Positions 2 through 23,923 are shown, counted from the first letter of the stretch. The stretch: 24,000 bases of DNA from Thauera sp. UBA6194 (GCA_002422685.1 DITC01000022.1:565-24564), one strand, 5' to 3'. Numbers and translations are program-made. Notes: generated by a model from the letters alone, not told the origin.

Positions 2-49
2 TGGTGCCGGCAATAGGAATCGAACCCACGACCTTCTGATTACAAATCA
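2..49 (-). repeat. att repeat: truncated copy of the tRNA-Thr 3' part (anticodon stem to CCA)
   Basis: tggtgccggcaataggaatcgaacccacgaccttctgattacaaatca is identical over 48/48 bases to 23109..23156. The flanking bases differ (c1 vs a23108; c50 vs g23157). No tRNA 5' half follows it. Confidence 0.95.
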
Positions 50-67
50 CATTCTCGACCTCTTTGG

Positions 68-223: not shown

Positions 224-1570
224 ATGCCCCGCCAGCGCCTCACCCTGCCCCGCATCGCTGCCTTCAAGCCTGAGAAGGAAAGTTTTCTCTGGGACGAGGA
301 CATGCCGCGCCTCGCGGTGCGGGCGCGTCCGTCGGGCTCGAAGACGTTCATCTTCAAGGGCACGCTCGACGGCAAGGAGATCAAGGTCACCATCGGCAGT
401 ACCGACACATGGACAATCGAGGCAGCGCGCGAGCAGGCGCGGCTCTACCAGCGGCAGATCGACGATGGCAAGGATCCGCGGGACGTGATCCGCGAGCAGC
501 GCGAAGCAGAGGAGGCCGCGAAGGAGGCCGCCCAGGCTGCAGCAGCGGCCGCACGCGCCGAGATCGAGCGCGCCCAGCGTTACACCCTTCGCGCGCTCTG
601 CGACGCCTACACGGCCGCACTCGAGCGGGCAGGCAAGGCGAAGAGCGCAGCATCGACACGTTCCGCGTTCAAGTGCCACGTCGACGCCGAGACCGCGAGC
701 ACGCCGGCGAAGGACGTGACCGCCCACCAGCTGGCCGCCCTGGTGCGCAAGGTGCGCGAGGCAGGCAAGGAGCGCGCCGCCGGGATCCTGCGTAGCTACT
801 TGTCGGCAGCGTTCAACGCGGCCAAGCGCGCCCCCTTCGATTCCGCCCTTCCTGCAGACCTGATCCCGTTCGCCATCGAGCACAACCCCGTCGACGCGAT
901 CCCGGCAATCGCGGTGCAGCGTGGTGACCGCACCCTGAGCCCCGCCGAGCTCCGCACCTACCTCGGCCACATCCTGCGCGTCGGACAGGCGGATTCAGCC
1001 GGCCCCGACCTGGCCGACGTGGCTCTGCTGCTGGCGCTGCTGGCAGGCGGGCAGCGCATCGCCCAGTTGCTGCGTGCCAAGGTCTCCGACTTCGACGAGG
1101 AGGCCGGCACGCTGCGGCTGTGGGATGGCAAGGGCAAGCGCCGCACCGCCCGCGAACACGTTCTCCCCCTCGCGCCTCGCGCGGTCGAGCTGGTCACGTC
1201 GCTGGCCCGCCGCACGCAAGCACTCGGCGGCGAGCAATGGCTGTTCGCATCGTGGAAGGACACGAGGATGGCGGACGAAACCCCGGGCAAGCGCGCCGCC
1301 GAGATCTGCGAGGCGATGGGCTGCGAGTCGTTCAACCTGCGCGACATCCGCCGGACCGTCGAGACCATGCTCGCCGGGCTGGGCATCAGCAAGGACACCC
1401 GCGCGCAGTTGCTCTCCCATGGCATCAGCGGCGTGCAAGCGGCCCACTACGACCGGCATGAGTACATCGAGGAGAAGCGCGCCGCGCTGGTGGCGTGGGA
1501 GAACCGATTGATGGGGGTGGTCCGCGGCGAGAAGACACCATCGAACGTGCGGCAGTTGCGCGCAGCCTAG
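224..1570 (+). CDS. int: Tyrosine recombinase / phage integrase (P4-like, N-terminal arm-binding domain)
   Basis: 448 aa. The N-terminus FLWDEDMPRLAVRARPSGSKTFIFKGTLDGKEIKVTIG resembles the P4-type (DUF4102-like) arm-binding domain. The C-terminus carries catalytic-box patterns GGQRIAQLLRAKVSDFD, NLRDIRRT and LSHG..AAHYDRHEY. An agagg RBS lies 8 nt upstream. The gene sits next to the att repeat. Confidence 0.92.
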   Translation: MPRQRLTLPRIAAFKPEKESFLWDEDMPRLAVRARPSGSKTFIFKGTLDGKEIKVTIGSTDTWTIEAAREQARLYQRQIDDGKDPRDVIREQREAEEAAKEAAQAAAAAARAEIERAQRYTLRALCDAYTAALERAGKAKSAASTRSAFKCHVDAETASTPAKDVTAHQLAALVRKVREAGKERAAGILRSYLSAAFNAAKRAPFDSALPADLIPFAIEHNPVDAIPAIAVQRGDRTLSPAELRTYLGHILRVGQADSAGPDLADVALLLALLAGGQRIAQLLRAKVSDFDEEAGTLRLWDGKGKRRTAREHVLPLAPRAVELVTSLARRTQALGGEQWLFASWKDTRMADETPGKRAAEICEAMGCESFNLRDIRRTVETMLAGLGISKDTRAQLLSHGISGVQAAHYDRHEYIEEKRAALVAWENRLMGVVRGEKTPSNVRQLRAA

Positions 1571-3155: not shown

Positions 3156-6100
3156 CGACAAGATGCCCCGTGGCACGGTGGATGAGTTCAACAACCTTCG
3201 CCCGCTACCTGGCGCACCTGCCCCCGCGCAACCGCAACCGGCCGCCGGCCCGTGGCAGCGCTTCCAGCCCCAGGCCCAGGCCCAGCAGCCCGCTACCCAA
3301 GCGGCGCCACCGGTTACCGACTGGTCGAAGTTCGTGCCCGATCAGCCTGCCGCCCCGCAGACCGATTGGGGACAGTTCGTACCCGATCAGCCGCGCGAGA
3401 TGGGCATCATCAGCACGTTGGCGCAAGGCTTCCGCAACACCGGCCGCGCAGTCGGTGCAGCCGCCGACGTAGCACTCGACGATCGAGCAAGCGTGGTCGA
3501 GCGCGCGAACGCCCAGGCCGCCGCACCGAAGAACGAGAACCTGCGCGCCTTTGAAGGTGCGATCGAAAACCGCCGCGCCGCACTGGGCACCGACGACCCG
3601 GGTTTGCTGGATGCGCTGGGTGTGGTCGGCGGCGCGGTGCTCGCCCAGCCGAAGGGCGCCGGTTACGCGGTGCTCGAGCAGGCGCCGAACGCCGTGGCCG
3701 CCCTCGCCCCAGCTTGGGCAGGTGCGAAGCTGGGCGCCACCGCAGGCGCAGCTATTCCGCTGCCGGGCGCAGCACCCGCGCTCGGTGTGGTCGGCGGCCT
3801 GGCTGGCCTGTTCTTGGGTAACACCGCGCTCGAGGTCGGGCACAAGGCTATGGAAAAGGCGACCGACGGCCAGTTCACCGCCGCCGAGCGCGAGACCGCA
3901 TTCGTCGAAGGCGGAACGAAGGCTGCCACGATCACCGGCATCGATGCCGCGACGCTGGGCCTGTCGAAATGGATCATGGGTGCGACCTCTCGCGCCGTCG
4001 AGCGCGCCACCACGCGCGCCCTGACCGATGCCGGCGTCGATGTCGGCAACGAGGTGGCCGTGATGGCCGCCCGCCGATCGCCTGAGATGGTGAAGGCGGT
4101 GCGACAGGCACAAGAGGCAGCCATCGACACCACCGCCACGTTCGGCCGCAAGGCTGCCCGCGCTGGCGCAGCGCTCGGCCTCGAGACGATCGGTGAAGGC
4201 CTCGGCGAATACCTCGGCGAGCTCGCTGCAACGGGGAAGGCCGACGCGATCGACGCCGTGCTCGAGAGCGTGCTCAGCCTCGGCCAGTCGGGCGCAGAGG
4301 TCGCTTGGGGCGCATCGCGCAACGCCGCATCGATGGCCGCCGCCCGCCTCAACCCGGCCGCTGGTCCGAACAGCCGCGCCGCCATCGTCGCCTTGAACCA
4401 GCAGGCGCAGGGCAAGCTGCCACCGACTGAAGGCCCCCGCGCCGGCACGATGCAACAGGCTGCAGCAGCGGGGCAACTGGGCGGTGATTTGAATAACCAA
4501 GTGCCGACCGACTGGGCGCAGCAGATCGACGCGGCACTCGGCACCGCGCCCGCACAGCAAGAAGCGCAACCGATGGCGTCGCCCTGGCTCGATTACGAGC
4601 AGCAGGCACCGGCGACGGACTTGTCCGGATTCGTGCCCGATGCAGTCCCGGCCGGGTTCGTGCCGGACGCGAACCAGAACACCATCGAGACCTCCCCCGG
4701 CACCGCGCCGACCGCCACGACCAGCCCCGCGGCACCGAACGGCCAGCAGGATCAGCAGCAGGCCCCACGCCTCGTGCCGATGAAGGACGAGACCGCCGCA
4801 GCACGCCGCGCTGAAGTGGTCGCCAAGCGAACCGGCGTGCAGCACCTCGTGATTCCGCATCCGACCGTGGCCGGGCGCTTTGCTGTGGTGCCGGCCGACT
4901 CGCCGCTCGCCGCACCGACTGCCCAGACTGAGGGGCTCGACACTGCCGGCCTCTTCCAGACCCAGGTACCTATCCCGCTGAAGAACGCGCGCAACCTCGC
5001 CGGCATGATGTCGATGGCCGGCGGTGTCGAGCATGCCGTCGTGCCCGCCCCTACCGGTGATGGCTTCGGCGTGGCGCCCGTCGATCAACTTTCGCCCGCC
5101 CAGCTCCAGCAGTGGGCAGGCTTCCAACCCGGAACGCGGCGCGGTGCGGCCCGCCGCGTTCCAGGCCCGTCGGCCGCACCGACGGCAACGGCAACGCCCG
5201 CCCCCTCGGCGAGCACGACCAGCAGCACGGCCACCCCGATCGGGACGCCGGACGCTGGCCCCGAACTCGCCCAGGTGACCGGCGCGACGCCGCAAGCAGC
5301 ACCAGCAGCACCCGCAGTCCCGGAAGGCGCGCAGGGTCTCAACACCGAGGCCCAGCGCGCTGCACCGGCCCTGCCCCAGATCGACAGCAACACCTTCACC
5401 TCTGCCGTGGGCAACGCCCAGAGCACGATCCGCCGCGAACGCTGGACGGTGGACGGCGGCCGACGCTTCGAAGGTCGGATCCGCGCTGAACTCGAGCGTG
5501 CAGGCGTGTCGGCGAACGCGGCCCAGGCGGTGATCGACCTCGCGAAGCAGCAGAGTCCGGGCGACGCATTCGTGACCGGTGACGCGCTGGCGCAGGCGGC
5601 GCGCACGCTGGGCGTGATCAGCTCCGCATCGAGGACGACAACGCCGCAGCAGGACAAGCCCACCACCACCACCACCACCCGCGCCATCGTTCCCGGCCAG
5701 ACCGCCAAGGGCCGTGACGTGCTCCTCGCGCAGGTCGAGCAACTGAAGCAGCGCACCGCGCCCGCCGATCTGGTCAACGACTACAATGACCTGAAGGCCC
5801 GCATCGCCGACGCCCGCCGCCGCGCCGCCCTGAAGGCCACGAAGCGCACCGAGTCCGAGCGCCTCACCGAGTGGGCGGACAACCAAGATCGCGAACTCGA
5901 GCGCCTGCGCAACGAGATTGGGTTCGTAGAGCTGAAGGCCGGCACCGCGCGGTACAAGGTGCTCAACACGCCCGAGAACCTCGAGGTCTTCGCGCAGAAG
6001 CTGAAGAAGGCACCCGTCGGCCGATGGACGGTGACCGTCAAGCCTGAGGAGATTTACGACAATGTCGAAACCCGACCTGGCACAACCGAAGCCCAGCGTG

Positions 6101-9100
6101 AGACTGGCCGCAGTGCGGTGCGTGAGCTGGCCCGACGGGTCACGGCTCATCTACAGCGCCGAGGGAATCACCAAGATCGAGCCGCAATCGAGGTACTCGG
6201 CTCCCGCCTCTACGACGGATTCGCCGCCAACGGTGGCGTCGACCTCGTCGGCCAGCGAGTAACCAGCGCCGAAGACCTCGCCGTCTTGGCGCAGGTTTTC
6301 AGAGATCCCCGCTTCGAAACTTTTCGGGTCTTCTATACCGACCAGCAGGGCGTTGTCGTCGGTGAGGGCGCGTATTCGAGCCGCCTGCCCGCTGCTGTCA
6401 ATCTGCCGAACGACTTCGACGCCCACATCCGCCGCGACATGGGGCGCTTCGGCGCGACCGGCTTCTGGGTGCTTCACAACCACCCGTCCGGCCGCGCCAC
6501 CCCGTCACCGGCCGACGTCAATCTAACGAAGTGGATCGCCAGCAGCGTAAGCGGCTTCCGCGGTCACGTCGTGATCGATCACAACGAGTTCGCGACCATC
6601 GGCGGACAGGGCGCGGTGCAGGTCGTTCAGGCGCCGCAGCTCAACGGCACCGACTTCGGCAGCAAACCCGAGCTCGATCATCACATGCTCGGCAGCACGA
6701 TCAACGGTGAGCGGGACGTCGTGCAGGCCGCCAAAGCGCTGCAGGTGAAGAACGGGCACGCGGCCCTGATCTTCCTACGCCGCGACCAGAAAGTGCAGCT
6801 CGTGATGGATGTGCCGATGGCGTTGCTCCAGGACACCAGCCGCGCCGCCCTTGGCAAGCTGCGTGCAGTCGTGCGGGCGTTTGCGCGCGAGTCCGGGGCC
6901 GGTGGCTGGCGCTTCCTTGTACTGCCCGACGGCGTCAGCCCGGAGCCGATGAAGCGGCTGGTGCTGGACAACATCTTCACCGACATCGTGTCCGCGGATG
7001 GCACGACCGCCGGCAACTTCGGCGCGGTCACCACTGGCGACTTCCTCGATTACAGCCCGCCGATTCGTCGCGTGAAGGAGGCCGACGAGCCCAGTCGCGC
7101 GCAGACCGACACAGCTGCCTTCCGCCGCTGGTTCGGCAACAGCCAAGCCATCGACGACAACGGCCAGCCGCTGGTGATGTACCACGGCACGAACAAAGAC
7201 ATCACCGCGTTCAAAGCCGGCCGCGGTGGCGGGGCAATCTGGTTCGCCACCGACCCCACGCTCGCGAACATGTTCGTCGCCGGCGGCCGCCAGCGCATGG
7301 CCGAGGGCAACCGCAAAGGCTCGGCGGTCTATCCGGTGTTCCTGTCGGTGCAGAACCCGCTCGACTTGGGCGACGCATCGCCCCAGGACAACAGCCCCTA
7401 CTCGTACGTGCTGAAGGCCGCCGGCCTGCCCGCGAATTACGACGCGGTCGCAGAAATCGCCCGCCGCAACCTCGAAAGTGGGTATGCCGGCGTGAGCCCG
7501 TCGGCACAGGATCCGATCGCAACCCTGACCGAAACCTACATGGCCCGGTACAACCGGCTATCCGACATCCTCGATAACCCGGGGCTGATCGAGGTACTGC
7601 AGGAAGCCGGCTTCGATGGGATCAAGATGCAGGAACAGGGCGTGACCACCTTCGCGGTGTTCAGGCCCGAGCAGATCAAGAGCGCCACCGGCAACGCTGG
7701 CACCTTCGATCCGGCCGATCCGTCGATCGTGCGCGAGGACACCGCCGACCCGTACAACACCATCGAGACCCGCCCGAACACGACCGAGGCCCAGCTCGAC
7801 ACCGGCCGCGCCGCCCTCGCCGACGTGCAGCGGCGCATTCTCAGTCTTCGCGGCCAGCGGATCGGCGCGGCGGTGCTGGGCTCGCGCCTGGCCGCTGACC
7901 TCGCCACCACCGGCGGCGCGCAACTGATCGGCCAAGAGGTGCGCGACGCGAGCGACCTGGCGGTGTTGGGGCAGATCTTCAGAGATCCCCGCTTCGAGAC
8001 CTGGCGAGCCATTTTCGTGAAGGACGGGAAGATTGTTGGTGAGCACGCTTACAGCTCGCGCCTGCCCTCCTCGGTGCTCATGCCGCGCGGCATCGATCAG
8101 TGGCTCAAGACCCAATCGGAGAAATACGGCGCGGACGCCGTATTCACACTACATAATCACCCGAACGGCACCGCAAGGCCATCGGACGGCGACATGCACT
8201 TCGCGGCCCGACTGCGTCGTGAAGTTCCGAACTGGAAGGGCGAGATCATCATCGACAGCTCGGAATATGCCGTACTCACCGGCCTCGGTGTGCCGTCTGA
8301 GAGCTCCGAGAGCATGAGCGTGCGCGACCTGGCCGAATACGGCGCGACGGTAACCTTTGCCCCGCGCCTGGCTTCGGTCGACTTCAACTCTTCCCCCGAG
8401 CTCGAACACCGCCTCCTCGGCCTGCCGATCGGCGACCCGGCGAACATCGCGAAACTGGGCAAGGCCCTGCAGATTCCGGGCGGGCATGCCGCGATGATCG
8501 TGACCAGCGAGGGCAAGGTGCAGGCCCTGCTCGACGTTCCTGTCGCGCCCTTGCTCGACACCAAGTCGAAGCTGGGCCGCGCGAAGATCATGGCCATGGT
8601 CCGCCGAATCTCCCGTGCAACCGGCGGCGAGTCGCGGTTCCTCGTGGTGCCCAAGGGCGCGAAACTCGACCGCTGGTTTGTGCGCCAAGGCATCTTCCAG
8701 GACGTGGTGAGCGAGACCGGCACATCGATGTTGGCCGCCGTGCGCAAGTGGAACGGCGACCCGAATTGGTTCCCGATGGACCAGATCGGGCGCAACGCCG
8801 GCCGCAGCGCCCGCCTGCTGTACGAGCCCGCCGCTGGCTACGACGCCGCGGAGCCCGGCACGCGCCGCAGCCGCGCCGCCGAGCCGCAGCAGACCGAGGC
8901 GATCGAGGACTTCACGCCCGAGCGCGCCACCGTCGGCGAGTGGATCGCGCACCAGCTCAAGCAGAACAGGGGCTGGGCGATGGGTGCGCTGACGCGTGAC
9001 CAGCTCGCCGACATTTATGGCGCCAGCATGCCGGCAGTTGAGCAGTTCGACCGCACCGTGCAAGCGATGGACCTCGTTCGGAATCGCATGATGGAACAGG

Positions 9101-11526
9101 CCGACGCACTGGTCGAGCGCTGGCGGAAATTGCCCAGCAAGGAGGCCGACCGCCTCGCCGACGTGATGCACGCGGCCACCCTGGCGCAGTTCGACCCGGC
9201 CGAGATGAACGCGACCACGCCCGAGGAACAGCAGATCGCGGCCGACTTCGATGCGCTGTCGATGCCCGCTCAAGCGGTGTATCGCGACGTTCGCGACCAG
9301 TACCGTGACACCCTGATCGCGGTCCGCGATAGCCTCGCCAGCCGCGCCGAACGCACAGGCAGCACCGGGCGGGCCATCGCCGACGAGATCCGGCTCAAGT
9401 TCGACCGCTACCTTAGCGAAGGGCCTTACTTCAGCCTGGCCCGCTTCGGCGACTTCATCCTGATCGCCGACCGTGACGGGGAGCGTGTAGTCGAGGCGTT
9501 CGAGAGCTCACTGCAGCGTGAGAAGCGCGCCCGCGGACTGCGCGCCCAGGGCTTCCAGGTGAAGCTGACCGCGAAGCAGCAGTACAGCGCGACCAAGGAC
9601 GGCGCGGCCGGCTCCTTCATCGGCGACGTACTCGAGAAAGTCGATGCGCTCGACATGGACGGCGAGCAAAAATCGGCACTCATGGACCAGTTGAATCAGC
9701 TGGCCATTTCCGCCTTGCCGGACGCGAGCTATCGCAAGCACTTCGCGCACCGCAAGGGCACGCCGGGCTTTTCCAACGATGCGATGCGCGCCTTCGCCTC
9801 GTCGCAAATGCACGCAGCCCACCACCTGGCGCGGATCAAGCACGCCGACGAGCTCGCGCTGCTGATTGACGAGATGCGCGAGGACATCCAGGCCCAGCGC
9901 GGCGACGTCGACACCACCGAGCAGCAGCAGGTCGTCAACGAACTCACGCGCCGACTGGACCTCATGATGAATCCGACGACGCACCCGGTCACCGCAGCGC
10001 TCGGGCAGGTCGGCTTCGTGATGTCGCTCGGCGGCAGCATTGCATCGGGCATCACGAACCTGAGCCAAACCCCGCTTGTGACCTACCCCTGGCTGGGCTC
10101 GAAGTTCGGATTCGACAAGGCTGCCGGCGCCCTGCTGAAGGCGAGCAAGGATTACTTCGGCGGCCGATGGGAGAAGTGGTCGGGCTTTGTACTCGCCGAT
10201 AACCCGAACCTCATCGACGACGAGCGCGCCGCCCTGCGCCACCTCGAGGAAACCGGCTTGATCAACCTGACCCAGGCAAGCGACCTAGCCGGCACGGCGA
10301 ACACCGACTCGACGGTCAGCAAGCGGGCATTCGCGATCAACCGCGCAATGAAAATCGTCGGCTGGACCTTCCACACGCCGGAAGTCTTCAACCGGCAAGT
10401 GTCGGCCCTGGCCGCGTATCGCCTCGCGCGCGACGCCGGACAGACCCACGACACCGCCATCGAATCGGCGCGGCAAGCGCTTATCCGCACGCACTTCGAT
10501 TATTCCGCCAGCAACCGCGCCCGGTTCATGGCAGGAAATGTCACGCGGGTCATCACGATGTTCAAACAATATTCGCAGAACGTGACCTACCTGATGTGGC
10601 GCAACGCCTATCAGGCCCTCAAGGGCGAATCGGCCGATGTGCGCCGCGAGGCCCGCCGCATGCTGCTGGGTGTCGCCACGATGCACTTCGCGGCGGCCGG
10701 CACGATGGGCTTGCCGCTCGGGATCTTCGGCGTTACGCCCCTGCTGGCGCTACTCAGCATGGGCATGGGCGACGGGGACGATCCGTGGGATTGGGAAACC
10801 GAGTACCGCAACATGCTCGCCGACACCTTCGGCAAGGAGGGCGGGGAAGCCATCGCAAAGGGGCCGATCCGCATGCTGCTGAACGTGGATCTGGCGTCGC
10901 GCGTCGGACTCGGTGACCTCTGGATTCGCCCGCCGCAGAAGGAAGCCGAGGGGCGTGACCTCGTTGAGGCATGGCTGATCAGCCTGCTCGGCCCCGTCGC
11001 CGGTTACGCCGGGCAGATGGGCACCGCTGCGAAGGCCTTCGAAGAGGGCAAGTTCGCCCGGGGCGTTGAGGCGATGCTGCCCAAGTTCCTGGCGTCGCCG
11101 CTCAAGGCGATCCGGTATGAAGCGGAGGGCGTGCGCAGCTGGAAGGGTGCCGACCTTGGCATCACGCTCACCGAGGCGGACATCGCGGGCACGGCGCTGG
11201 GCTTCAATCCGGCACGCGTCGCCGAGATGTACGAGGGTCGCAGCGCGGTGAAGGGGCGCGAAGCACGGCTCCAGGCGCGGCGCGAGGAACTCACGAACAT
11301 GTGGTGGGAGTCGCAGCAGGCCGGCGACCGCACAGGTGTCGCCGAGGCGTTCGACCAGATCCGCAAGTTCAACCAGCGCAACCCGCCCTTCGCTATCACG
11401 ATGAAAACCTTGCGCCAGTCGGCGATGGCTCGGCGACGTGCCCAGCTCCAGACCGCACAGGGCTACTTCCTGAACCGCCGCCGCGACGAGCTCCGCGAGT
11501 TCAGCCGCTTCGCCAACATCGACTGA
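3139..11526 (+). CDS. Giant multidomain 'polyvalent' protein: 2x RadC-like JAB/MPN modules + ART-like domain + PLxRFG C-terminal region
   Basis: Uninterrupted 2,795-codon ORF with an aaggaaaag RBS upstream of ATG 3139. In-frame motifs are VLHNHPSGRATPSPADVNLT (HNH at 6475..6483), TLHNHPNGTARPSDGDMHFA (8152..8160), FRRWFGNSQAIDDNGQPLVMYHGT (YHG at 7180..7188) and YFSLARFGDF (SLARFG at 9433..9450). All recognisable motifs lie in this frame, and the antisense ORFs are low-complexity R/G/A-rich. Confidence 0.9.
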   Translation: MALGTDDKMPRGTVDEFNNLRPLPGAPAPAQPQPAAGPWQRFQPQAQAQQPATQAAPPVTDWSKFVPDQPAAPQTDWGQFVPDQPREMGIISTLAQGFRNTGRAVGAAADVALDDRASVVERANAQAAAPKNENLRAFEGAIENRRAALGTDDPGLLDALGVVGGAVLAQPKGAGYAVLEQAPNAVAALAPAWAGAKLGATAGAAIPLPGAAPALGVVGGLAGLFLGNTALEVGHKAMEKATDGQFTAAERETAFVEGGTKAATITGIDAATLGLSKWIMGATSRAVERATTRALTDAGVDVGNEVAVMAARRSPEMVKAVRQAQEAAIDTTATFGRKAARAGAALGLETIGEGLGEYLGELAATGKADAIDAVLESVLSLGQSGAEVAWGASRNAASMAAARLNPAAGPNSRAAIVALNQQAQGKLPPTEGPRAGTMQQAAAAGQLGGDLNNQVPTDWAQQIDAALGTAPAQQEAQPMASPWLDYEQQAPATDLSGFVPDAVPAGFVPDANQNTIETSPGTAPTATTSPAAPNGQQDQQQAPRLVPMKDETAAARRAEVVAKRTGVQHLVIPHPTVAGRFAVVPADSPLAAPTAQTEGLDTAGLFQTQVPIPLKNARNLAGMMSMAGGVEHAVVPAPTGDGFGVAPVDQLSPAQLQQWAGFQPGTRRGAARRVPGPSAAPTATATPAPSASTTSSTATPIGTPDAGPELAQVTGATPQAAPAAPAVPEGAQGLNTEAQRAAPALPQIDSNTFTSAVGNAQSTIRRERWTVDGGRRFEGRIRAELERAGVSANAAQAVIDLAKQQSPGDAFVTGDALAQAARTLGVISSASRTTTPQQDKPTTTTTTRAIVPGQTAKGRDVLLAQVEQLKQRTAPADLVNDYNDLKARIADARRRAALKATKRTESERLTEWADNQDRELERLRNEIGFVELKAGTARYKVLNTPENLEVFAQKLKKAPVGRWTVTVKPEEIYDNVETRPGTTEAQRETGRSAVRELARRVTAHLQRRGNHQDRAAIEVLGSRLYDGFAANGGVDLVGQRVTSAEDLAVLAQVFRDPRFETFRVFYTDQQGVVVGEGAYSSRLPAAVNLPNDFDAHIRRDMGRFGATGFWVLHNHPSGRATPSPADVNLTKWIASSVSGFRGHVVIDHNEFATIGGQGAVQVVQAPQLNGTDFGSKPELDHHMLGSTINGERDVVQAAKALQVKNGHAALIFLRRDQKVQLVMDVPMALLQDTSRAALGKLRAVVRAFARESGAGGWRFLVLPDGVSPEPMKRLVLDNIFTDIVSADGTTAGNFGAVTTGDFLDYSPPIRRVKEADEPSRAQTDTAAFRRWFGNSQAIDDNGQPLVMYHGTNKDITAFKAGRGGGAIWFATDPTLANMFVAGGRQRMAEGNRKGSAVYPVFLSVQNPLDLGDASPQDNSPYSYVLKAAGLPANYDAVAEIARRNLESGYAGVSPSAQDPIATLTETYMARYNRLSDILDNPGLIEVLQEAGFDGIKMQEQGVTTFAVFRPEQIKSATGNAGTFDPADPSIVREDTADPYNTIETRPNTTEAQLDTGRAALADVQRRILSLRGQRIGAAVLGSRLAADLATTGGAQLIGQEVRDASDLAVLGQIFRDPRFETWRAIFVKDGKIVGEHAYSSRLPSSVLMPRGIDQWLKTQSEKYGADAVFTLHNHPNGTARPSDGDMHFAARLRREVPNWKGEIIIDSSEYAVLTGLGVPSESSESMSVRDLAEYGATVTFAPRLASVDFNSSPELEHRLLGLPIGDPANIAKLGKALQIPGGHAAMIVTSEGKVQALLDVPVAPLLDTKSKLGRAKIMAMVRRISRATGGESRFLVVPKGAKLDRWFVRQGIFQDVVSETGTSMLAAVRKWNGDPNWFPMDQIGRNAGRSARLLYEPAAGYDAAEPGTRRSRAAEPQQTEAIEDFTPERATVGEWIAHQLKQNRGWAMGALTRDQLADIYGASMPAVEQFDRTVQAMDLVRNRMMEQADALVERWRKLPSKEADRLADVMHAATLAQFDPAEMNATTPEEQQIAADFDALSMPAQAVYRDVRDQYRDTLIAVRDSLASRAERTGSTGRAIADEIRLKFDRYLSEGPYFSLARFGDFILIADRDGERVVEAFESSLQREKRARGLRAQGFQVKLTAKQQYSATKDGAAGSFIGDVLEKVDALDMDGEQKSALMDQLNQLAISALPDASYRKHFAHRKGTPGFSNDAMRAFASSQMHAAHHLARIKHADELALLIDEMREDIQAQRGDVDTTEQQQVVNELTRRLDLMMNPTTHPVTAALGQVGFVMSLGGSIASGITNLSQTPLVTYPWLGSKFGFDKAAGALLKASKDYFGGRWEKWSGFVLADNPNLIDDERAALRHLEETGLINLTQASDLAGTANTDSTVSKRAFAINRAMKIVGWTFHTPEVFNRQVSALAAYRLARDAGQTHDTAIESARQALIRTHFDYSASNRARFMAGNVTRVITMFKQYSQNVTYLMWRNAYQALKGESADVRREARRMLLGVATMHFAAAGTMGLPLGIFGVTPLLALLSMGMGDGDDPWDWETEYRNMLADTFGKEGGEAIAKGPIRMLLNVDLASRVGLGDLWIRPPQKEAEGRDLVEAWLISLLGPVAGYAGQMGTAAKAFEEGKFARGVEAMLPKFLASPLKAIRYEAEGVRSWKGADLGITLTEADIAGTALGFNPARVAEMYEGRSAVKGREARLQARREELTNMWWESQQAGDRTGVAEAFDQIRKFNQRNPPFAITMKTLRQSAMARRRAQLQTAQGYFLNRRRDELREFSRFANID
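6270..6605 (+). other. Domain: RadC-like JAB/MPN metallopeptidase, copy 1 (intact HxH..S..D motif)
   Basis: EDLAVLAQVFRDPRFETFRVFY...GFWVLHNHPSGRATPSPADVNLT...HVVIDHNEF contains the RadC-type JAMM signature HNHPSG-x3-PS-x2-D. Confidence 0.8.
7105..7700 (+). other. Domain: ART-like (polyvalent-protein type ADP-ribosyltransferase-like) region
   Basis: TDTAAFRRWFGNSQAIDDNGQPLVMYHGT...GAIWFATDPTLANMF...AVYPVFLSVQNPLDL...FDGIKMQEQGVTTFAVFRPEQIK. This pattern is recalled from ART-PolyVal-type domains of phage and plasmid polyvalent proteins. The assignment is by eye only. Confidence 0.5.
7951..8280 (+). other. Domain: RadC-like JAB/MPN metallopeptidase, copy 2 (intact motif)
   Basis: SDLAVLGQIFRDPRFETWRAIFV...AVFTLHNHPNGTARPSDGDMHFA...EIIIDSSEY. 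It shares the 20-nt identity ttcagagatccccgcttcga (7978..7997) with copy 1 (6298..6317). Confidence 0.8.
8900..11526 (+). other. Domain region: PLxRFG-type C-terminal region with hydrophobic segments
   Basis: GPYFSLARFGDFILIAD fits the PLxRFG motif (S in place of P). Downstream hydrophobic stretches are VGFVMSLGGSIASGITNL, LLGVATMHFAAAGTMGLPLGIFGVTPLLALLSMGMG and LISLLGPVAGYAGQMG. Confidence 0.55.
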
Positions 11527-14180: not shown

Positions 14181-15182
14181 ATGCCTAAAGCAGTGTCTTT
14201 GTTCTCGGGGTGCGGCGGATCGGACGCGGGCGTGATCGCGGCCGGGTTCGATGTCGTCATGGCGAATGACATAATCGCCTACGCGCGCGACGCCTATCTG
14301 GCCAACCTGCCCAAGACCGACTACGTGCTCGGCGATGTGGCCAAGATCGAGGACAGCGCATTCCCGAGCGCCGAGCTTCTAGTGGGATGCTATCCGTGCC
14401 AGGGCTTTAGCCAGGGTGGCGCCCGCGAGGCCGACCGCCGCATCAATACACTGTATCTGGAATTCGCCCGCGCTTTGCGGGCCATCCAGCCCAAAGCCTT
14501 TATTGCCGAGAACGTCTCGGGCTTGCGCCGCAGCACGTACAAGCATCTGCTCGACGACCAGATCGTGCAGTTCAGTTCGGCCGGCGAGCACGGCTATGAC
14601 GTGGTGTGGCAAGAGCTCAAAGCCCACGAATACGGCGTGCCACAAGAGCGCAAACGGCTGGTCATCGTCGGCATTCGGCGGGATCTGGGCGTGCGCTATG
14701 GCTTCCCGGCGCCCACCCATGGGCCGAGCGCGGACCAGCCCTACCTGACGATCGGGAAGGCGCTCGAAGGCTTGCCCGAATGGCCGGAAGGGGAATACTG
14801 CGACGACCCCTTCCACTGGTATTACCTTTCACGCAACCGCCGGCGCGGCGCGGACGAGATCAGCAAGACGATCGTCAGCCACATGCGCCACATGCCCTTG
14901 CATCCGGTGAGCCCCTCGCTCAAGCGCATCCACACCGACAAGTGGGAGTTCGAGGAGGACAAGCCCGCCCGCCGCTTTTCCTACCGCGAGGCTGCGCGGC
15001 TGCAGGGCTTCACCGGGAAATACCTCAAGCACGGCGGCGATTTTGTCTTTCCAGAGGCGTGCACCCATGCATCCGGGCAGGAAGGCAACCTGTTGCGCTA
15101 TCGGTACAAGGTCATCGGCAATGCGGTGCCGCCCCCGCTTTTCGAGGCGGTGGCAAAGGCGTTGCCGGATGTCTGGGACTGA
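14181..15182 (+). CDS. dcm: DNA (cytosine-5)-methyltransferase
   Basis: 333 aa with m5C-MTase motifs in order: LFSGCGG (I), GCYPCQGFSQGG (IV, catalytic PC), FIAENV (VI), QERKRLVIVG (VIII), GNAVPPPL (X). An aaaaggag RBS lies upstream. Confidence 0.93.
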   Translation: MPKAVSLFSGCGGSDAGVIAAGFDVVMANDIIAYARDAYLANLPKTDYVLGDVAKIEDSAFPSAELLVGCYPCQGFSQGGAREADRRINTLYLEFARALRAIQPKAFIAENVSGLRRSTYKHLLDDQIVQFSSAGEHGYDVVWQELKAHEYGVPQERKRLVIVGIRRDLGVRYGFPAPTHGPSADQPYLTIGKALEGLPEWPEGEYCDDPFHWYYLSRNRRRGADEISKTIVSHMRHMPLHPVSPSLKRIHTDKWEFEEDKPARRFSYREAARLQGFTGKYLKHGGDFVFPEACTHASGQEGNLLRYRYKVIGNAVPPPLFEAVAKALPDVWD

Positions 15183-15210
15183 CTGAGCGCGCGCGGAGCG
15201 GCGTGGGGTC

Positions 15211-15633
15211 ATGGCGGACCGCTTTTCCTCCGCAGCCCGCGACCGTGTGATGTCCCGCATCAAACAGCGTGACACTGCGCCGGAAATGGCGCTGTGGCGG
15301 GCGCTTTGGGCTGCGGGGCTTCGCTATCGGCTGAAGCTAAAGCAGAAGCTACCAGGCAAGCCCGATTTGATATTTGCGGCGGTCAAGGTCGCGATCTTTG
15401 TCCATGGCTGCTTCTGGCACGGGTGCCCAGAGCACGGCCGCAAGCCTAAGAGCCATGAAGCGTATTGGACGCCGAAACTCTCGAGGAACCTGCGCAGGGA
15501 TGCCGAGGTGAATGCCGCGCTCGAGGCGATGGGCTGGCAGGTTGTCCGATTCTGGGAACACCAGATCACAGCGGACCTGGCCGGCTGCATTGCACGAGTG
15601 GCCGTGTTGGTCAGGCCATGCACAACTGCATGA
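15211..15633 (+). CDS. vsr: Very short patch repair endonuclease
   Basis: 140 aa. TAPEMALWRALWAAGLRYRL...GKPDLIFAAVKVAIFVHGCFWHGCPEHG...YWTPKLSRNLRRD...GWQVVRFWEH is the Vsr signature. The gene lies directly downstream of the m5C MTase. Confidence 0.92.
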   Translation: MADRFSSAARDRVMSRIKQRDTAPEMALWRALWAAGLRYRLKLKQKLPGKPDLIFAAVKVAIFVHGCFWHGCPEHGRKPKSHEAYWTPKLSRNLRRDAEVNAALEAMGWQVVRFWEHQITADLAGCIARVAVLVRPCTTA

Positions 15634-19444: not shown

Positions 19445-21940
19445 TCACCCCTCGAGGAGGTCGCTGCCGCGATTCTCGAACTTGAGCGGCGGCACCCACC
19501 AGCACGGAGAGCCGTTGGTGTAGCCGCACTTGTCGCCTACCAGCATCTTCAGCGCCGCGGCGGCATCTTTGGATTGCGGGTTGGTCGGCGTCTTCACCCC
19601 CAACAGCTTCAGCACGCCGCTCGCCGACAACCTCTTCCATTCAGTTTTCGGCGCGGTCATGTCCAGTACCGAGGCGAGCATGTCATGGATCGCGCTCCGC
19701 ACGACGTGGCCGGCATTGCAGGCCTCGAGCTGCGCCTCCTCCTCACGGACCAACCACCAGCGCTCACCCTCCTCGTACGCAGCCGCGACCTGTGCCCACA
19801 GCTGCTGCAGGTCGAGACCATGCTCGTAGTCGACCGCGGTGACCGGCACCGTCCACCAGCGCACGTTACCTGTGTCGTCGCGCAGGAACTCCTCGGGGTT
19901 CACCGACGCGAAGAACACGGTGCGTCGCGGGAATTCGGAATCGACCCGTGCGTACGGCAACCGGACCTTGTCGGTGCGCTGGCTGATGAAGGCCTTCAGC
20001 ATCGCCACGTCGGCGCGGTTCATCGTGGAATCGACCTCGCCGAGCTCGACGATCCAGTGGCTGACGGCCGTCTTCACGCTGTCGCGATTGCTCGGGTCCA
20101 GGTGCATGCCGAGGTGGACGTAGTCGGCGAAAGCGTCCGGCAGGAGGTTGGCCACCCAAGGCGTTTTCCCGATGGACTGCGGACCCTGAAGCACCAACAC
20201 ACCCTTCGAGTAGAAGCCGGCGGTCTTCATTGCTGCAGCCACAGCGCTGATCAACCAGCGACGCACAACCAGATCCCGCAGCGACTGCGGGAAGCCCGGA
20301 CGCACGGTCAGCGTATTGCACAGCTGCGCGACTCGGTCCTTGCCGTCCCAGGGCTTCGACTTGATCCAGTCGGCGACCGTGTTACGCGGGCGCTGGAACG
20401 CCGTGGTTACCGCATACTCTGCGGCCTTCTCTCCGTTCAGGTCGTTGAGCGCGGCGAGGGATGTCACCCAGGACAGCGCGGCGTTGTCGGCCTGGTCGGG
20501 GCACACCTCGAGGCCCGGAAGCCGGAGCGAGGCCTTTTTCCGGATCACGTCGTAGAACACTGTGATGCCGTAGGCCTCGAGCAGCCGCTGCGTGTTTTCC
20601 ATCGTGTTCTTCAGGCTGATAGTGTTCTCCGTCATCGTGCAATGCGGAAACGCAGCCGGACTCAACGCCGGCACAGGGAGCCCATACGGAATGAACTCCT
20701 TCAGATCCACGTCACCCGGACGCGCCAACACAGCACGGGGGGCGGCCACGAGGCGCCGCGCAGCCGCAATCCCCGTCGGCCGGCCGAGGTTCGCAAAGCG
20801 CCTGCTGATCGCTTGTGCAAGCTGCTCCCGCTGCGTGCTCGACACATCGGCGGCCCGGATCTCTGCGGAGATAGGCCCCTCGATCTCGACCTGGTCGGCC
20901 GAGGCGATGCGGGCGAACCAATCGCGCTCCTGCACCACTGCTGCGCTGGCTGCTGCCTTGCGCTGCGCCCGATACGCGGCCCAGTTGTCCAGCCCGACCC
21001 AGTCCTTCAGCGACCCGACCGTGATCAGGCCCCCGGCGCGCTGTTCGTGCGCTTCTTCCCAGATCGCCGGCACGACGCCGGTCACGTACTTCACCGACTT
21101 CGATGACCACACGTCGACGATCTCGAGCGCCTCGAGCGCCTCTTCGGTGCCATGGAACTGGTGGTGCGCGGCGAAGATCACGTTGCGCCACGAGTCGCGA
21201 TCGTCGCAGTAGTCCTGCGGCAGCTGGTCCAGCATCCAGCGCAGCGCCTCGAGGTCGACATCGTCGTGGCGGTTCTTCACCGCCTCGAAGGGGTCGTCGT
21301 CCCAGGCGGCACCGGCGGTGGCCGAGCCCTTCACGGTCCAGTCTGCAGGGATTAGCGTGGGCAGCTCCTCGCGCACCCAGGCGGCCACCGCGTCCAGGTC
21401 GATCGTGGGCAGCATCCACAGCTCTTGATCCTCCAGGCTGCCGTTCAGCCACTGGTAGGGCTTGTGGGTGTCCGGGTGGATGCCGTAGGCGACGAACTGC
21501 TGGCCGATGCCCAGCACCTCGACCTTGTTCTCCTTCTCGCCCTCCTCCGGGTTCGGCCGCAGCCACACTGCCGAGTTGATCTTCGTGCGCGGCTCCGCGG
21601 CGGCATACACCAGCAGGCGCTTGGGCGCGCGGCCGATGCGGCACGGCGCCTCGCCGAAGCGCGCAACGAATGCCTCATACACCCGGGCGGCGACCGCCGG
21701 GTCGTAGAGGTCCAGATCCACCGCGGCGAGGGTGCCGGTACGCAGGCCGACGTTGAGGTGCCCCTGCCCGTTCGCTGCCCAGTAGGCGATCTGGTCGCGG
21801 TGCAGCACGGCGTCCTGCCAGCCGGGCACCATCCCGCTGGATCCGTCCGGTTTCCGACCCTTCCCGAAAACAGGAATCGGCTCGAAGCCCTGCGCGAGCA
21901 GCTTCGGGCCAAGGGATGCGTAATTCTGCGGGGCGTTCAT
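19445..21940 (-). CDS. Primase-helicase (Prim-Pol/AEP N-terminus, PriCT-like middle, VirE/D5-type P-loop C-terminus)
   Basis: Track ORF 19445..21970. ATG 21940 (MNAPQNY) is preferred because a gaggggg sits 8 nt upstream and it forms an ATGA overlap with the upstream gene. The N-terminus LLAQGFEPIPV...NVGLRTGTLAAVDLDLYD is Prim-Pol-like. DSWRNVIFAAHHQFHGTEEALE is PriCT-like. The Walker A is LQGPQSIGKT (~20162..20186). VRLPYARVDSEFPRRTVFFASVNPEEFLRDDTGNVRWW is VirE-like. Confidence 0.88.
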   Translation of the reverse strand: MNAPQNYASLGPKLLAQGFEPIPVFGKGRKPDGSSGMVPGWQDAVLHRDQIAYWAANGQGHLNVGLRTGTLAAVDLDLYDPAVAARVYEAFVARFGEAPCRIGRAPKRLLVYAAAEPRTKINSAVWLRPNPEEGEKENKVEVLGIGQQFVAYGIHPDTHKPYQWLNGSLEDQELWMLPTIDLDAVAAWVREELPTLIPADWTVKGSATAGAAWDDDPFEAVKNRHDDVDLEALRWMLDQLPQDYCDDRDSWRNVIFAAHHQFHGTEEALEALEIVDVWSSKSVKYVTGVVPAIWEEAHEQRAGGLITVGSLKDWVGLDNWAAYRAQRKAAASAAVVQERDWFARIASADQVEIEGPISAEIRAADVSSTQREQLAQAISRRFANLGRPTGIAAARRLVAAPRAVLARPGDVDLKEFIPYGLPVPALSPAAFPHCTMTENTISLKNTMENTQRLLEAYGITVFYDVIRKKASLRLPGLEVCPDQADNAALSWVTSLAALNDLNGEKAAEYAVTTAFQRPRNTVADWIKSKPWDGKDRVAQLCNTLTVRPGFPQSLRDLVVRRWLISAVAAAMKTAGFYSKGVLVLQGPQSIGKTPWVANLLPDAFADYVHLGMHLDPSNRDSVKTAVSHWIVELGEVDSTMNRADVAMLKAFISQRTDKVRLPYARVDSEFPRRTVFFASVNPEEFLRDDTGNVRWWTVPVTAVDYEHGLDLQQLWAQVAAAYEEGERWWLVREEEAQLEACNAGHVVRSAIHDMLASVLDMTAPKTEWKRLSASGVLKLLGVKTPTNPQSKDAAAALKMLVGDKCGYTNGSPCWWVPPLKFENRGSDLLEG

Positions 21941-22356
21941 GGCAGCACCCCCTCGGCGGCAAGCCCGCAAGCAATCACGAACTCTTCCTCGGCCGTGCCG
22001 ATGGTGATGTCGGCGAGCCGATAAACGGCGTAGCGAACCCGTTCAAACCGATTCGCACCCGCGACGAGTTCGGTCTCGATCGACCACCCGGCATCCCTCA
22101 AGCGCTTGATGTAGACGGACGCGCGCATCGAGCGCGCCAACCCGTCGAAGCGCCGATGCGTCACCTCCGCCTCAACGAGGAGCTGGCCGAGAAGTTGGCC
22201 GGCGCAAGTCCAGGGCCGGGGGAAGATCAGGCCATCGGACGACACACTCCACGTTGCGGTGTGTGGTAGAGTTTCGGCGTGAATTTGGCTCACATTTGAG
22301 CTTAGCGCCCGGATCGGTCCCCCAACCGTCCGGGCGTTTTCATTTGCGGTGGTCAT
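21937..22356 (-). CDS. Hypothetical protein (replication operon)
   Basis: Internal ATG 22356 of track ORF 21937..22530. It has ATGA overlaps with both neighbours (22353..22356 and 21937..21940). 139 aa. No motif recognised. Confidence 0.6.
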   Translation of the reverse strand: MTTANENARTVGGPIRALSSNVSQIHAETLPHTATWSVSSDGLIFPRPWTCAGQLLGQLLVEAEVTHRRFDGLARSMRASVYIKRLRDAGWSIETELVAGANRFERVRYAVYRLADITIGTAEEEFVIACGLAAEGVLP

Positions 22357-23011: not shown

Positions 23012-23054
23012 CGTTCCCCGCTTTTTCTGGATTCGTTCCCCAGTCGTTCCCCGA
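23012..23054 (+). repeat. cgttcccc repeats (candidate integrase arm-type sites, tRNA-proximal arm)
   Basis: cgttcccc occurs at 23012, 23034 and 23045. The 25-bp block 23030..23054 is identical to 177..201. Confidence 0.7.
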
Positions 23055-23108: not shown

Positions 23109-23156
23109 TGGTGCCGGCAATAGGAATCGAACCCACGACCTTCTGATTACAAATCA
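23109..23156 (-). repeat. att repeat within the intact tRNA-Thr
   Basis: 48/48 identical to 2..49. Confidence 0.95.
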
Positions 23157-23184
23157 GCTGCTCTACCAACTGAGCTATGCCGGC
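23109..23184 (-). tRNA. tRNA-Thr (anticodon UGU), CCA encoded
   Basis: The reverse complement folds by hand as a 76-nt cloverleaf: GCCGGCA-TA-GCTC-AGTTGGTA-GAGC-A-GCTGA-TTTGTAA-TCAGA-AGGTC-GTGGG-TTCGATT-CCTAT-TGCCGGC-ACCA. The anticodon loop is TT-TGT-AA. It closely resembles E. coli tRNA-Thr(UGU). Confidence 0.93.
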
Positions 23185-23291: not shown

Positions 23292-23465
23292 ATGGAAACA
23301 GCTCTCACCCGTACCCTGATGCCGCTTGGACTGCTCGCAGGCTTGATGCTTGCCACTGGCCATACTGGCGGCGCGCTGGCCGTGGCCGTCGCTGGCGGTG
23401 CATGCACCTGGATGACGCGGGCGGATGCACTCAAGCGGGACTTGCGTCGCCCACATCGAGCTTAA
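23292..23465 (+). CDS. Doubtful small hydrophobic protein (57 aa)
   Basis: Internal ATG 23292 of track ORF 23220..23465. Product: METALTRTLMPLGLLAGLMLATGHTGGALAVAVAGGACTWMTRADALKRDLRRPHRA, with one or two hydrophobic segments. No clear SD. It lies 15 nt downstream of SOS box 2, and its 3' end overlaps the ProQ-like gene 3' end. Confidence 0.3.
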   Translation: METALTRTLMPLGLLAGLMLATGHTGGALAVAVAGGACTWMTRADALKRDLRRPHRA

Positions 23466-23923
23466 CGACCGAACTTGTGCACAAGTTGCTGCAGCTTCTG
23501 CGCGTGTCGACGCTCGGCCTCTTCGGCCGCACGCTTTTCGCGCTGCTGGCGCGCGACTTCGGCAAAACGATCCTTGAGCGTAGCCGCTGCATGCTGGCGG
23601 TGTTCATCGGAGAGCTCGCCTACCGGGGCACCATCGAGATCATGACGATGCGTTCCGCGTTCGACTCCCTTGAGATATTTGGTGGAGGCCGTGTGCAAGC
23701 GTAGCGCCGTGCGCAGATTTTTGCGGTCGAAATCCGGAAAACGCTCGAGAATCGCGCCGTCGATCTTCAACGCCAAAGGCTTGTAATCACGAAACGTCGG
23801 GGATTCGGCCTGCAGCCGCTTGAGCATGGCACGCGGATCAAGCCTGGGCTTGGCTTGCACCGGTGCTGCTGCACCACTTGCGTCCGGCAGTTGGGCGTCG
23901 GTCGCAGTCTGTTCTGTAGTCAT
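23462..23923 (-). CDS. proQ: ProQ/FinO-family RNA-binding protein
   Basis: 153 aa. PTFRDYKPLALKIDGAILERFPDFDRKNLRTALRLHTASTKYLKGVERGTHRHDLDGAPVGELSDEH is the FinO/ProQ-domain pattern, followed by a basic helical tail. Chromosomal flank. Confidence 0.8.
   Translation of the reverse strand: MTTEQTATDAQLPDASGAAAPVQAKPRLDPRAMLKRLQAESPTFRDYKPLALKIDGAILERFPDFDRKNLRTALRLHTASTKYLKGVERGTHRHDLDGAPVGELSDEHRQHAAATLKDRFAEVARQQREKRAAEEAERRHAQKLQQLVHKFGR

Follow-up and report, generated by a model that had tools for sequence, protein, structure and literature searches.

In a stretch of 24,000 nucleotides from Thauera sp. UBA6194 (GCA_002422685.1, DITC01000022.1:565-24564; the whole stretch is referred to here as the window), one uninterrupted open reading frame (ORF) encodes a 2,795-residue protein of an integrated mobile element, and within this protein a module built around a JAB domain occurs twice. 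Our analysis suggests, with a probability that we put at roughly 0.7, that the two modules are paralogous cassettes of a mobile-element polyvalent protein, each joining an apparently active JAB of the RadC clade to a second, degenerate domain of the same fold (pseudo-JAB), which would serve as a non-catalytic partner to a hydrolase that acts in a new host. To our knowledge, RadC-type JABs are among the most widespread domains of bacteria and mobile elements that are still without demonstrated activity. The data presented here show that in one large RadC-type subfamily the JAB is always accompanied by a dead copy of itself, and that the two evolve as one unit, a cassette that has been duplicated whole, is found as a stand-alone gene and has been shuffled among giant polyvalent proteins.

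The duplicated module and its two domains

The two modules span residues 973-1293 and 1539-1865 of the ORF and align by BLASTP with 41% identity over 336 residues (E=1e-77); the alignment begins at the ETRP motif, covers the JAB and takes in the whole of the segment that follows it. This bears out the internal duplication of about 1 kb that had been noticed by a model reading the nucleotide sequence by itself (the original prediction) and, by alignment statistics, puts the duplication far beyond what chance would be expected to give. Each module has three parts, namely an ETRP-x-TTEAQ peptide followed by a helix, a RadC-clade JAB, and a downstream segment of about 120 residues (Table 1). Nearly all the sequence features on which the original prediction rested were recovered: ETRP-x-TTEAQ is found at residues 977 and 1543, which puts the module starts at nt 6055 and 7753, at a distance of 566 codons; FRDPRFET is common to both (residues 1054 and 1614); the HNHP motif is intact twice, as HNHPSG...PS..D (residue 1113) and HNHPNG...PS..D (residue 1672); and the 20-nt identity between 6298-6317 and 7978-7997 proved to be part of a larger direct repeat of 47 nt (85%). 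The Y-x-N-x prefix claimed for both modules holds for module 1 (YDNV) and fails for module 2, which has YNTI. In the AlphaFold model of module 1, the helix of the N-terminal element occupies module residues 12-34, and residues 1-20 have a predicted local distance difference test score (pLDDT) of 80-84.

The catalytic domains plainly belong to the RadC clade, as Pfam, NCBIfam, Foldseek and hhalign agree. Pfam places two RadC-like JAB matches on the ORF (residues 1050-1138 and about 1655-1692), and PF04002, matched in two stretches, scores 50.4 bits and so passes its curated threshold of 22.1. The RadC models of NCBIfam give matches too, which stay under the equivalog cut-offs set for full-length proteins, as a domain standing by itself would be expected to do. 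Comparison of Escherichia coli YicR with the module JAB by hhalign gave P=1e-15. When the model of the whole module was searched with Foldseek, the best match in the PDB was RadC 2qlc_A (E=5.8e-8, target-normalised template modelling (TM) score 0.78, r.m.s.d. 2.2), a comparison that cannot tell the two domains apart, so that the downstream segment was modelled alone (see below). The active-site residues are E1060, H1113, H1115, S1123 and D1126 in module 1 and E1620, H1672, H1674, S1682 and D1685 in module 2, and among 171 relatives the JAMM positions E, HxH, S and D vary little or not at all. Judged by these residues, the zinc-hydrolase site is complete in both modules, and activity is predicted for each.

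The downstream segments of both modules, together with those of 20 family members, match nothing relevant in Pfam even at E<=10, the segments have no match in NCBIfam, and a profile made from the segment alignment finds only chance-level matches (E about 1) among PDB sequences. Profile-profile comparison of the JAB with the downstream segment by hhalign gave a probability of 91.8% (P=7e-7) for an alignment of 27 modules (alignment A1), and of 95.7% (P=1e-8, 81 columns) for 171 JAB sequences set against 177 segments. The real alignment scored 50.2, compared with 11.2 for a reversed profile and at most 18.3 for 40 column shuffles. Its register pairs LVGQRVTSAEDLAVLAQVFRDPRFETFRVFY with MLGSTINGERDVVQAAKALQVKNGHAALIFL and GATGFWVLHNHPSG with GAGGWRFLVLPDG; the pairings that had been proposed by eye, GATGFWVLHNHPSG with GAGGWRFLVLPDG and AEDLAVLAQVFRDPRFETFRVFY with ERDVVQAAKALQVKNGHAALIFL, are thus reproduced at P=1e-8 with clean controls. 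In addition, true JAB domains are weak matches of a hidden Markov model (HMM) of the downstream segment (E=0.008; E=4e-4).

In the AlphaFold models, the JAB and the downstream segment have in common the order alpha-beta-beta-alpha-beta-alpha-beta. When the segment of module 1 was modelled alone (pLDDT 82, predicted TM score (pTM) 0.75) and searched with Foldseek, the first five places among PDB matches were all taken by chains of RadC 2qlc (E=7e-4 to 4e-3), with TM scores of 0.52-0.60 and 114-122 aligned of about 125 columns, followed by a deaminase, the MPN- subunit KIAA0157 (5cw3_B, rank 7, E=0.047), JAMM1 and CSN5. Its best matches in BFVD are phage proteins annotated as 'RadC-like JAB', 'RadC DNA repair' and 'MPN domain'. 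At the positions of the zinc ligands and of the catalytic E, S and D, the segment has variable non-ligand residues throughout. It keeps residues that are common to the active JAB, namely a Pro that follows strand 2, a Gly that precedes strand 3 and an Asp within strand 4, and its helix 2 has two conserved arginines (R78, 86%; R82, 81%).

The segment has the fold of a JAB/RadC domain, with neither a curated-profile match nor the metal ligands. We call it a pseudo-JAB and not a RadC family member by profile, since Pfam and NCBIfam find nothing in it and the ligands are gone. Because three independent lines, the profile-profile comparison, the order of secondary-structure elements and the fold search, concur, we conclude that it is a degenerate RadC-type JAB devoid of metal ligands. 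These results uphold the central point of the original prediction, that an active JAB is followed, twice, by a degenerate JAB without the histidines; the prediction had staked itself on a JAB/MPN fold and a statistically supported alignment, and Foldseek returned RadC for the former and hhalign P=1e-8 for the latter. That the segment is instead an unrelated alpha/beta domain, resembling a JAB by convergence or chance, is about the least probable of the readings considered here. It would account for the lack of a match in Pfam, NCBIfam and PDB sequences, for the identity to the JAB of only 17%, for Foldseek E-values of only about 1e-3 and for the failure of YicR to match the segment profile significantly, and is opposed by the hhalign result with its shuffled and reversed controls, by the identical order of secondary-structure elements, by the retention of the same structural residues in both domains and by the fact that RadC or JAB proteins top two independent structure libraries over nearly the whole length of the segment. 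No description of the pseudo-JAB was found in Pfam (2025), in NCBIfam (2026) or in the literature that could be searched; the literature search yielded nothing specific on a tandem active/inactive RadC JAB, on PLxRFG or on RadC function on conjugative elements.

The JAB and pseudo-JAB pair among relatives

When 1.84 billion representative proteins were searched with a profile of the pseudo-domain, 662 matched at E<=1e-3, the majority with a length of 2,000-5,000 residues. In 170 of 181 proteins examined a JAB is followed at least once by a pseudo-JAB, giving 175 pairs with a median gap of 14 residues, and a JAB precedes every downstream segment that has any sequence upstream of it; the pair was seen in all sampled proteins that are intact. 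The HxH..S..D signature is intact in 173 of 179 JABs. The six proteins with a pseudo-JAB only, in which it starts at residues 1-29, look like N-terminally truncated fragments. Five of the 181 have a JAB only, and two of these were inspected: one is a truncated remnant (locus L007) and the other (locus L008, 2156-3886) a stand-alone homolog split between JAB and pseudo-JAB by an IS200/IS605-type Y1 transposase. The pseudo-JAB of the split gene continues in the next ORF (E=6e-48), and it is because of the transposase insertion that databases list a JAB-only protein at this locus. The three others are 181-216 residues long, end right after the JAB and are presumed to be fragments. An arrangement of JAB and pseudo-JAB as separate genes, like a heterodimer, was considered and rejected, as both candidates for it are the split gene and the truncated remnant just described.

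The full module also occurs by itself, in genes of 360-415 codons. One such gene directly follows that of a TraC-like protein with ArdC-N, MPTase-PolyVal and Toprim domains in a relaxase-T4CP operon on a plasmid-like contig of Nitrosomonas, and others come after genes for giant methyltransferase and helicase (LPD3) proteins. Several of the stand-alone modules P0001-P0008 have an extra conserved N-terminal peptide, KGG-x-PG-x-PGL-x(4)-ITD-x-x-GR-x-V-x-HW (alignment A1, columns ~160-195), that is absent from the window protein; P0001 also has a precomputed match to PF18823.

Besides the window protein, five of the sampled proteins hold a second copy; in four the whole module is present twice, and in P0038 it is the pseudo-JAB only that recurs. 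The whole module was duplicated at least three times independently, because in P0041 (49%) and in P0044 (47%) the copies are closest to each other within the protein, and those of the window protein, P0036 and P0037 form two orthologous series. These data show that JAB and pseudo-JAB make up an obligate unit, which is also the unit of duplication.

The same data bear on whether the pseudo-JAB could be an independent bead on a string, a ligand- or nucleic-acid-binding domain that targets the cassette and neither packs on the JAB nor regulates it. This reading has a flexible linker of low confidence and a pTM of 0.51 for the whole module in its favour, as well as the two arginines of helix 2, and a possible DNA-binding role for inactive JABs of the RadC type was put forward by Iyer et al. 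(PMC3239186). We nevertheless hold it to be doubtful, as the invariant order and short linker of the 175 pairs and the duplication of the module as one unit fit an integrated didomain better, and a generic targeting domain would be expected beside other effectors as well, a combination seen in none of the 181 proteins.

The N-terminal peptide raises a further possibility, that the JABs are self-processing peptidases which cut the polyvalent protein at the ETRP-x-TTE peptides and free its effector domains after delivery. A sharply conserved short peptide about 55 residues before each JAB, ahead of a helix and a disordered stretch, would suit a cleavage site, and the survey of polyvalent proteins by Iyer et al. 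(PMC5512222) proposes that peptidase domains of such proteins release other domains. The ETRP motif is also present in stand-alone single-module proteins, where only about 30 residues precede it, and the TRP motif is found in only 47 of the 132 JABs that have enough upstream sequence. These observations, with the lack of demonstrated peptidase activity for RadC-type JABs, make self-processing very improbable. A third motif that could be counted in its favour is the orphan peptide NTIETSPGT at residues 514-522 (nt 4678-4697), which has 90% DNA identity to the start of module 2 (7756-7775); no JAB stands behind it, and its sequence is not preserved in the Thauera ortholog described below. The ETRP motif was accordingly discarded as a dispersed cleavage signal, this single copy being the only one outside the modules.

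Proposed role and comparison with known systems

In the reading that we prefer, the cassette of some 320-330 residues consists of the N-terminal peptide and helix, a RadC-clade JAB with a complete site, a linker of about 14 residues and a pseudo-JAB of about 120 residues. The pseudo-JAB would be an ancient internal copy of the RadC-type fold, which lost the metal ligands and kept the shared structural residues, and would stand beside the active JAB as its non-catalytic partner. The two may form a pseudo-dimer within the chain, in which the pseudo-JAB would shape the substrate site or gate it, or the pseudo-JAB may bind the substrate. Precedents for such roles are the MPN- subunits beside MPN+ enzymes and the pseudo-catalytic domain of two-domain cytidine deaminases. 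Because of the polyvalent-protein context, we infer that the cassette may act early in a new host as a hydrolase on a host or defence target, more probably one that is nucleic acid or nucleotide-linked, as proposed for RadC, than a ubiquitin-like conjugate.

Several observations weigh against this interpretation. As regards contact between the two domains, the model of the whole module has a pTM of only 0.51, and its linker (residues 194-207) a pLDDT below 50; their obligate co-occurrence would favour direct packing indirectly at most. The Foldseek E-values of the pseudo-domain are modest (about 1e-3), with TM scores of about 0.55-0.60. YicR alone aligns with the pseudo-JAB profile in the same register at P=0.013, which is not significant, so that support at the sequence level comes from comparison with the module's own JAB. 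In addition, we know of no biochemical activity for any RadC-type JAB, and the substrate and the role in host takeover are consequently drawn from context.

A stronger proposal is that the didomain is a single-chain bacterial counterpart of the MPN+/MPN- pairs, which arose independently in the RadC clade and in which the dead domain is needed to build or gate the active site; we regard this as a tentative idea, with the odds leaning somewhat against it. Were it true, it would reveal a large and so far unannotated family of mobile-element cassettes with effector function, comprising 662 or more clusters at 50% identity, and provide a compact, self-contained RadC-type enzyme with which the long-disputed activity of RadC could be assayed.

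The original prediction had gone further and concluded that the fused pair was a regulated isopeptidase or deconjugase and not a simple RadC-like protein. This part is not supported: the catalytic domains are of the RadC clade (PF04002, 2qlc, and YicR at P=1e-15), and a scan of 20 other ORFs of the window turned up no ubiquitin-like (Ubl), E1 or E2 family, nor was one seen at five homolog loci. The idea that the active/dead pair is a regulated isopeptidase on ubiquitin-like, Pup-like or similar modifiers, perhaps countering a bacterial Ubl antiphage system, is not without a basis. Both modules have all the residues of the JAMM site, enzymes of this kind are typically built from an MPN+ and an MPN- partner, and the Foldseek matches of the whole module include, behind RadC (E=7e-4 and weaker), JAMM enzymes of archaea and eukaryotes and a Ubl-deubiquitinase from bacteria (8tyx_B); moreover, all biochemically characterised JAB domains are Ubl-tail peptidases (PMC5512222). 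The rationale for RadC in polyvalent proteins comes from PMC5512222 and PMC3239186, where genomic context is read as pointing to nucleic acids or nucleotides as substrates of RadC-type JABs, which are argued to be without the groove for a ubiquitin tail. Because of these arguments and the absence of Ubl machinery nearby, we rate deconjugation as distinctly unlikely.

Set beside RadC itself (PF04002; C. tepidum RadC 2qlc; E. coli YicR), the JABs described here possess E, HxH, S and D and pass the Pfam threshold, and 2qlc is the best structural match of the catalytic domain and of the pseudo-domain alike. They differ in that canonical RadC is a protein of about 220 residues with an HhH and a single JAB, whereas here the ETRP peptide and helix stand in place of the HhH and a metal-free copy of the fold always follows the JAB; they also form a distinct subfamily with invariant RDPRFET and SSRLP motifs. 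As in the eukaryotic MPN+/MPN- pairs (Rpn11/Rpn8, CSN5/CSN6, BRCC36/Abraxas-KIAA0157), a competent JAB has a partner of the same fold without zinc ligands. Those pairs, however, are separate polypeptides of the classical MPN clade that act on ubiquitin or NEDD8, whereas the present one is a covalent tandem which would have arisen independently within the RadC clade and has no Ubl machinery nearby.

Two-domain cytidine deaminases of the E. coli type and double-domain APOBEC3s are likewise tandem duplications with one active and one metal-free supporting domain. They are of the same deaminase-like fold class and offer the same catalytic/pseudo-catalytic arrangement, as is generally known, but belong to another superfamily with other chemistry, and the role of the pseudo-domain is experimentally established there and inferred here.

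The protein resembles the polyvalent proteins of phages and conjugative elements described in PMC5512222 in being a giant multidomain protein of a mobile element with RadC, ART-PolyVal, LPD39 and a PLxRFG C terminus, and a stand-alone module adjoins a TraC-like ArdC-N/MPTase/Toprim polyvalent protein. It departs from them in lying on a small integrase and PrimPol-helicase island where transfer and capsid genes were not detected; in addition, the survey (Iyer et al. 2017) treats RadC as a single domain, and those of its passages that a term search brought up mention neither pseudo-JAB nor cassette. Neither of the two is found among the LPD families of Pfam.

The presence of RadC in polyvalent proteins is a known theme, as are tandems of a catalytic with a pseudo-catalytic domain, and the finding is in this sense only moderately surprising. 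It adds a family of pseudo-enzyme domains that is absent from Pfam and NCBIfam, sets a defined construct boundary for biochemical and structural work, and extends the principle of pairing active with inactive JABs from eukaryotic complexes to bacterial mobile-element weaponry.

The polyvalent gene and the integrated element

The ORF that holds both modules encodes a polyvalent protein as defined by Iyer et al. 2017 (PMC5512222), because RadC (twice), ART-PolyVal, LPD39 and PLxRFG domains are combined in its one chain and it matches giant phage proteins. The original prediction had overlooked this setting, a polyvalent protein on a mobile element. Pfam identifies the ART-PolyVal domain, which lies between the two modules, and LPD39; NF032893 (PLxRFG) matches the C-terminal ~690 residues at E=1e-203, its score of 678 bits far exceeding the cut-off of 100. 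The C-terminal third aligns with the C termini of giant phage proteins in PHROGs, one family of which is labelled 'DarB-like antirestriction'. Like other polyvalent proteins, it is encoded by an invasive element, with an integrase, att repeats at a tRNA-Thr gene, a PrimPol/VapE-type replicase and PHROG matches.

Table 1. Features of the window, with positions counted from its first nucleotide and residues numbered in the 2,795-residue ORF
Feature	Residues	Position (nt)	Strand	Basis
Partial copy of the tRNA-Thr 3' part (att repeat), element end		2..60	.	59-nt direct repeat
Tyrosine integrase with Arm-DNA-bind_3 domain		224..1570	+	Pfam PF13356, PF00589; PHROG 1 integrase
Polyvalent protein gene, 2,795 residues		3139..11526	+	Single uninterrupted ORF; holds both modules
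Module 1 N-terminal element, YDNVETRPGTTEAQ motif and helix	973-1031	6055..6231	+	Module-alignment HMM E=4.9e-20
Module 1 JAB, predicted catalytic	1032-1158	6232..6612	+	Pfam RadC; HMM E=1.7e-55; Foldseek 2qlc
Module 1 pseudo-JAB, predicted	1172-1293	6652..7017	+	hhalign to JAB; AlphaFold; Foldseek; BFVD
ART-PolyVal ADP-ribosyltransferase domain	1339-1523	7153..7707	+	Pfam PF18760, E=5.9e-24
Module 2 N-terminal element, YNTIETRPNTTEAQ motif and helix	1539-1591	7753..7911	+	HMM E=1.1e-18
Module 2 JAB, predicted catalytic	1592-1717	7912..8289	+	Pfam RadC and Prok-JAB; HMM E=8.6e-50
Module 2 pseudo-JAB, predicted	1748-1865	8380..8733	+	HMM E=1.1e-29; aligns with module 1 pseudo-JAB in BLASTP
LPD39 domain	1938-2073	8950..9357	+	Pfam PF18858, E=4.5e-25
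PLxRFG ('tail-700') C-terminal domain	2095-2781	9421..11481	+	NCBIfam NF032893
tRNA-Thr(TGT), integration site and other element end		23109..23184	-	ARAGORN; direct repeat

The closest genome match is Thauera phenylacetica B4P, where the ortholog (locus L006, 7022-14860) has 2,612 residues. It is without a segment of about 167 residues (residues ~1326-1492, nt 7114-7614) that holds most of ART-PolyVal, with 86% identity upstream and 68% downstream of this indel, and its JAB modules directly abut. The difference is an indel of a domain cassette between close relatives. A megablast search of the PLSDB plasmids gave no match to the polyvalent gene.

Two kinds of repeat were seen in the N-terminal part of the protein. 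An unannotated region at residues 545-672 (nt 4771-5154) has an internal repeat of about 45 residues, VPMK...GVQHLVIPHPTVAGRFAVVPAD and IPLK...GVEHAVVPAPTGDGFGVAPVD, with a local alignment score of 66 against 23.6 +/- 4.4 for shuffled sequences and no family match. The motif [TD]D[WL]-x-x-FVPD occurs four times, at residues 65, 80, 498 and 507 (nt 3316-3393 and 4621-4674), within low-complexity sequence rich in Pro, Ala and Gln, and may be a short linear interaction motif.

The window is essentially one element of 23.1 kb integrated in tRNA-Thr, of which the polyvalent gene takes 36%, since a repeat of the 3' part of the tRNA-Thr gene brackets nearly the whole window and an integrase lies inside it. 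The two copies of this direct repeat (2-60 and 23109-23167) are 93% identical over 59 nt, the first 48 nt exactly, and the tyrosine integrase adjoins the partial tRNA-Thr copy. Just inside both ends lies a second repeat of 37 nt (165-201 and 23018-23054), which may be an arm-type site. An 841-residue protein with PrimPol, PriCT_2 and a VapE-like helicase (19445-21970, minus strand), of the phage primase/helicase type in PHROGs, suggests that the excised element replicates autonomously, and no capsid or conjugation genes were detected within the element. The element also encodes a Dcm-type C5 cytosine methyltransferase and, directly after it, a very-short-patch endonuclease (Vsr) that has a DUF559-like region fused to it (14181-15633); there is no obvious cognate restriction gene for this methylase, which may be an orphan carried by the element as anti-restriction cargo. 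Just outside the element, beyond tRNA-Thr, stands a gene for a ProQ/FinO-family RNA chaperone (23462-23923, minus strand).

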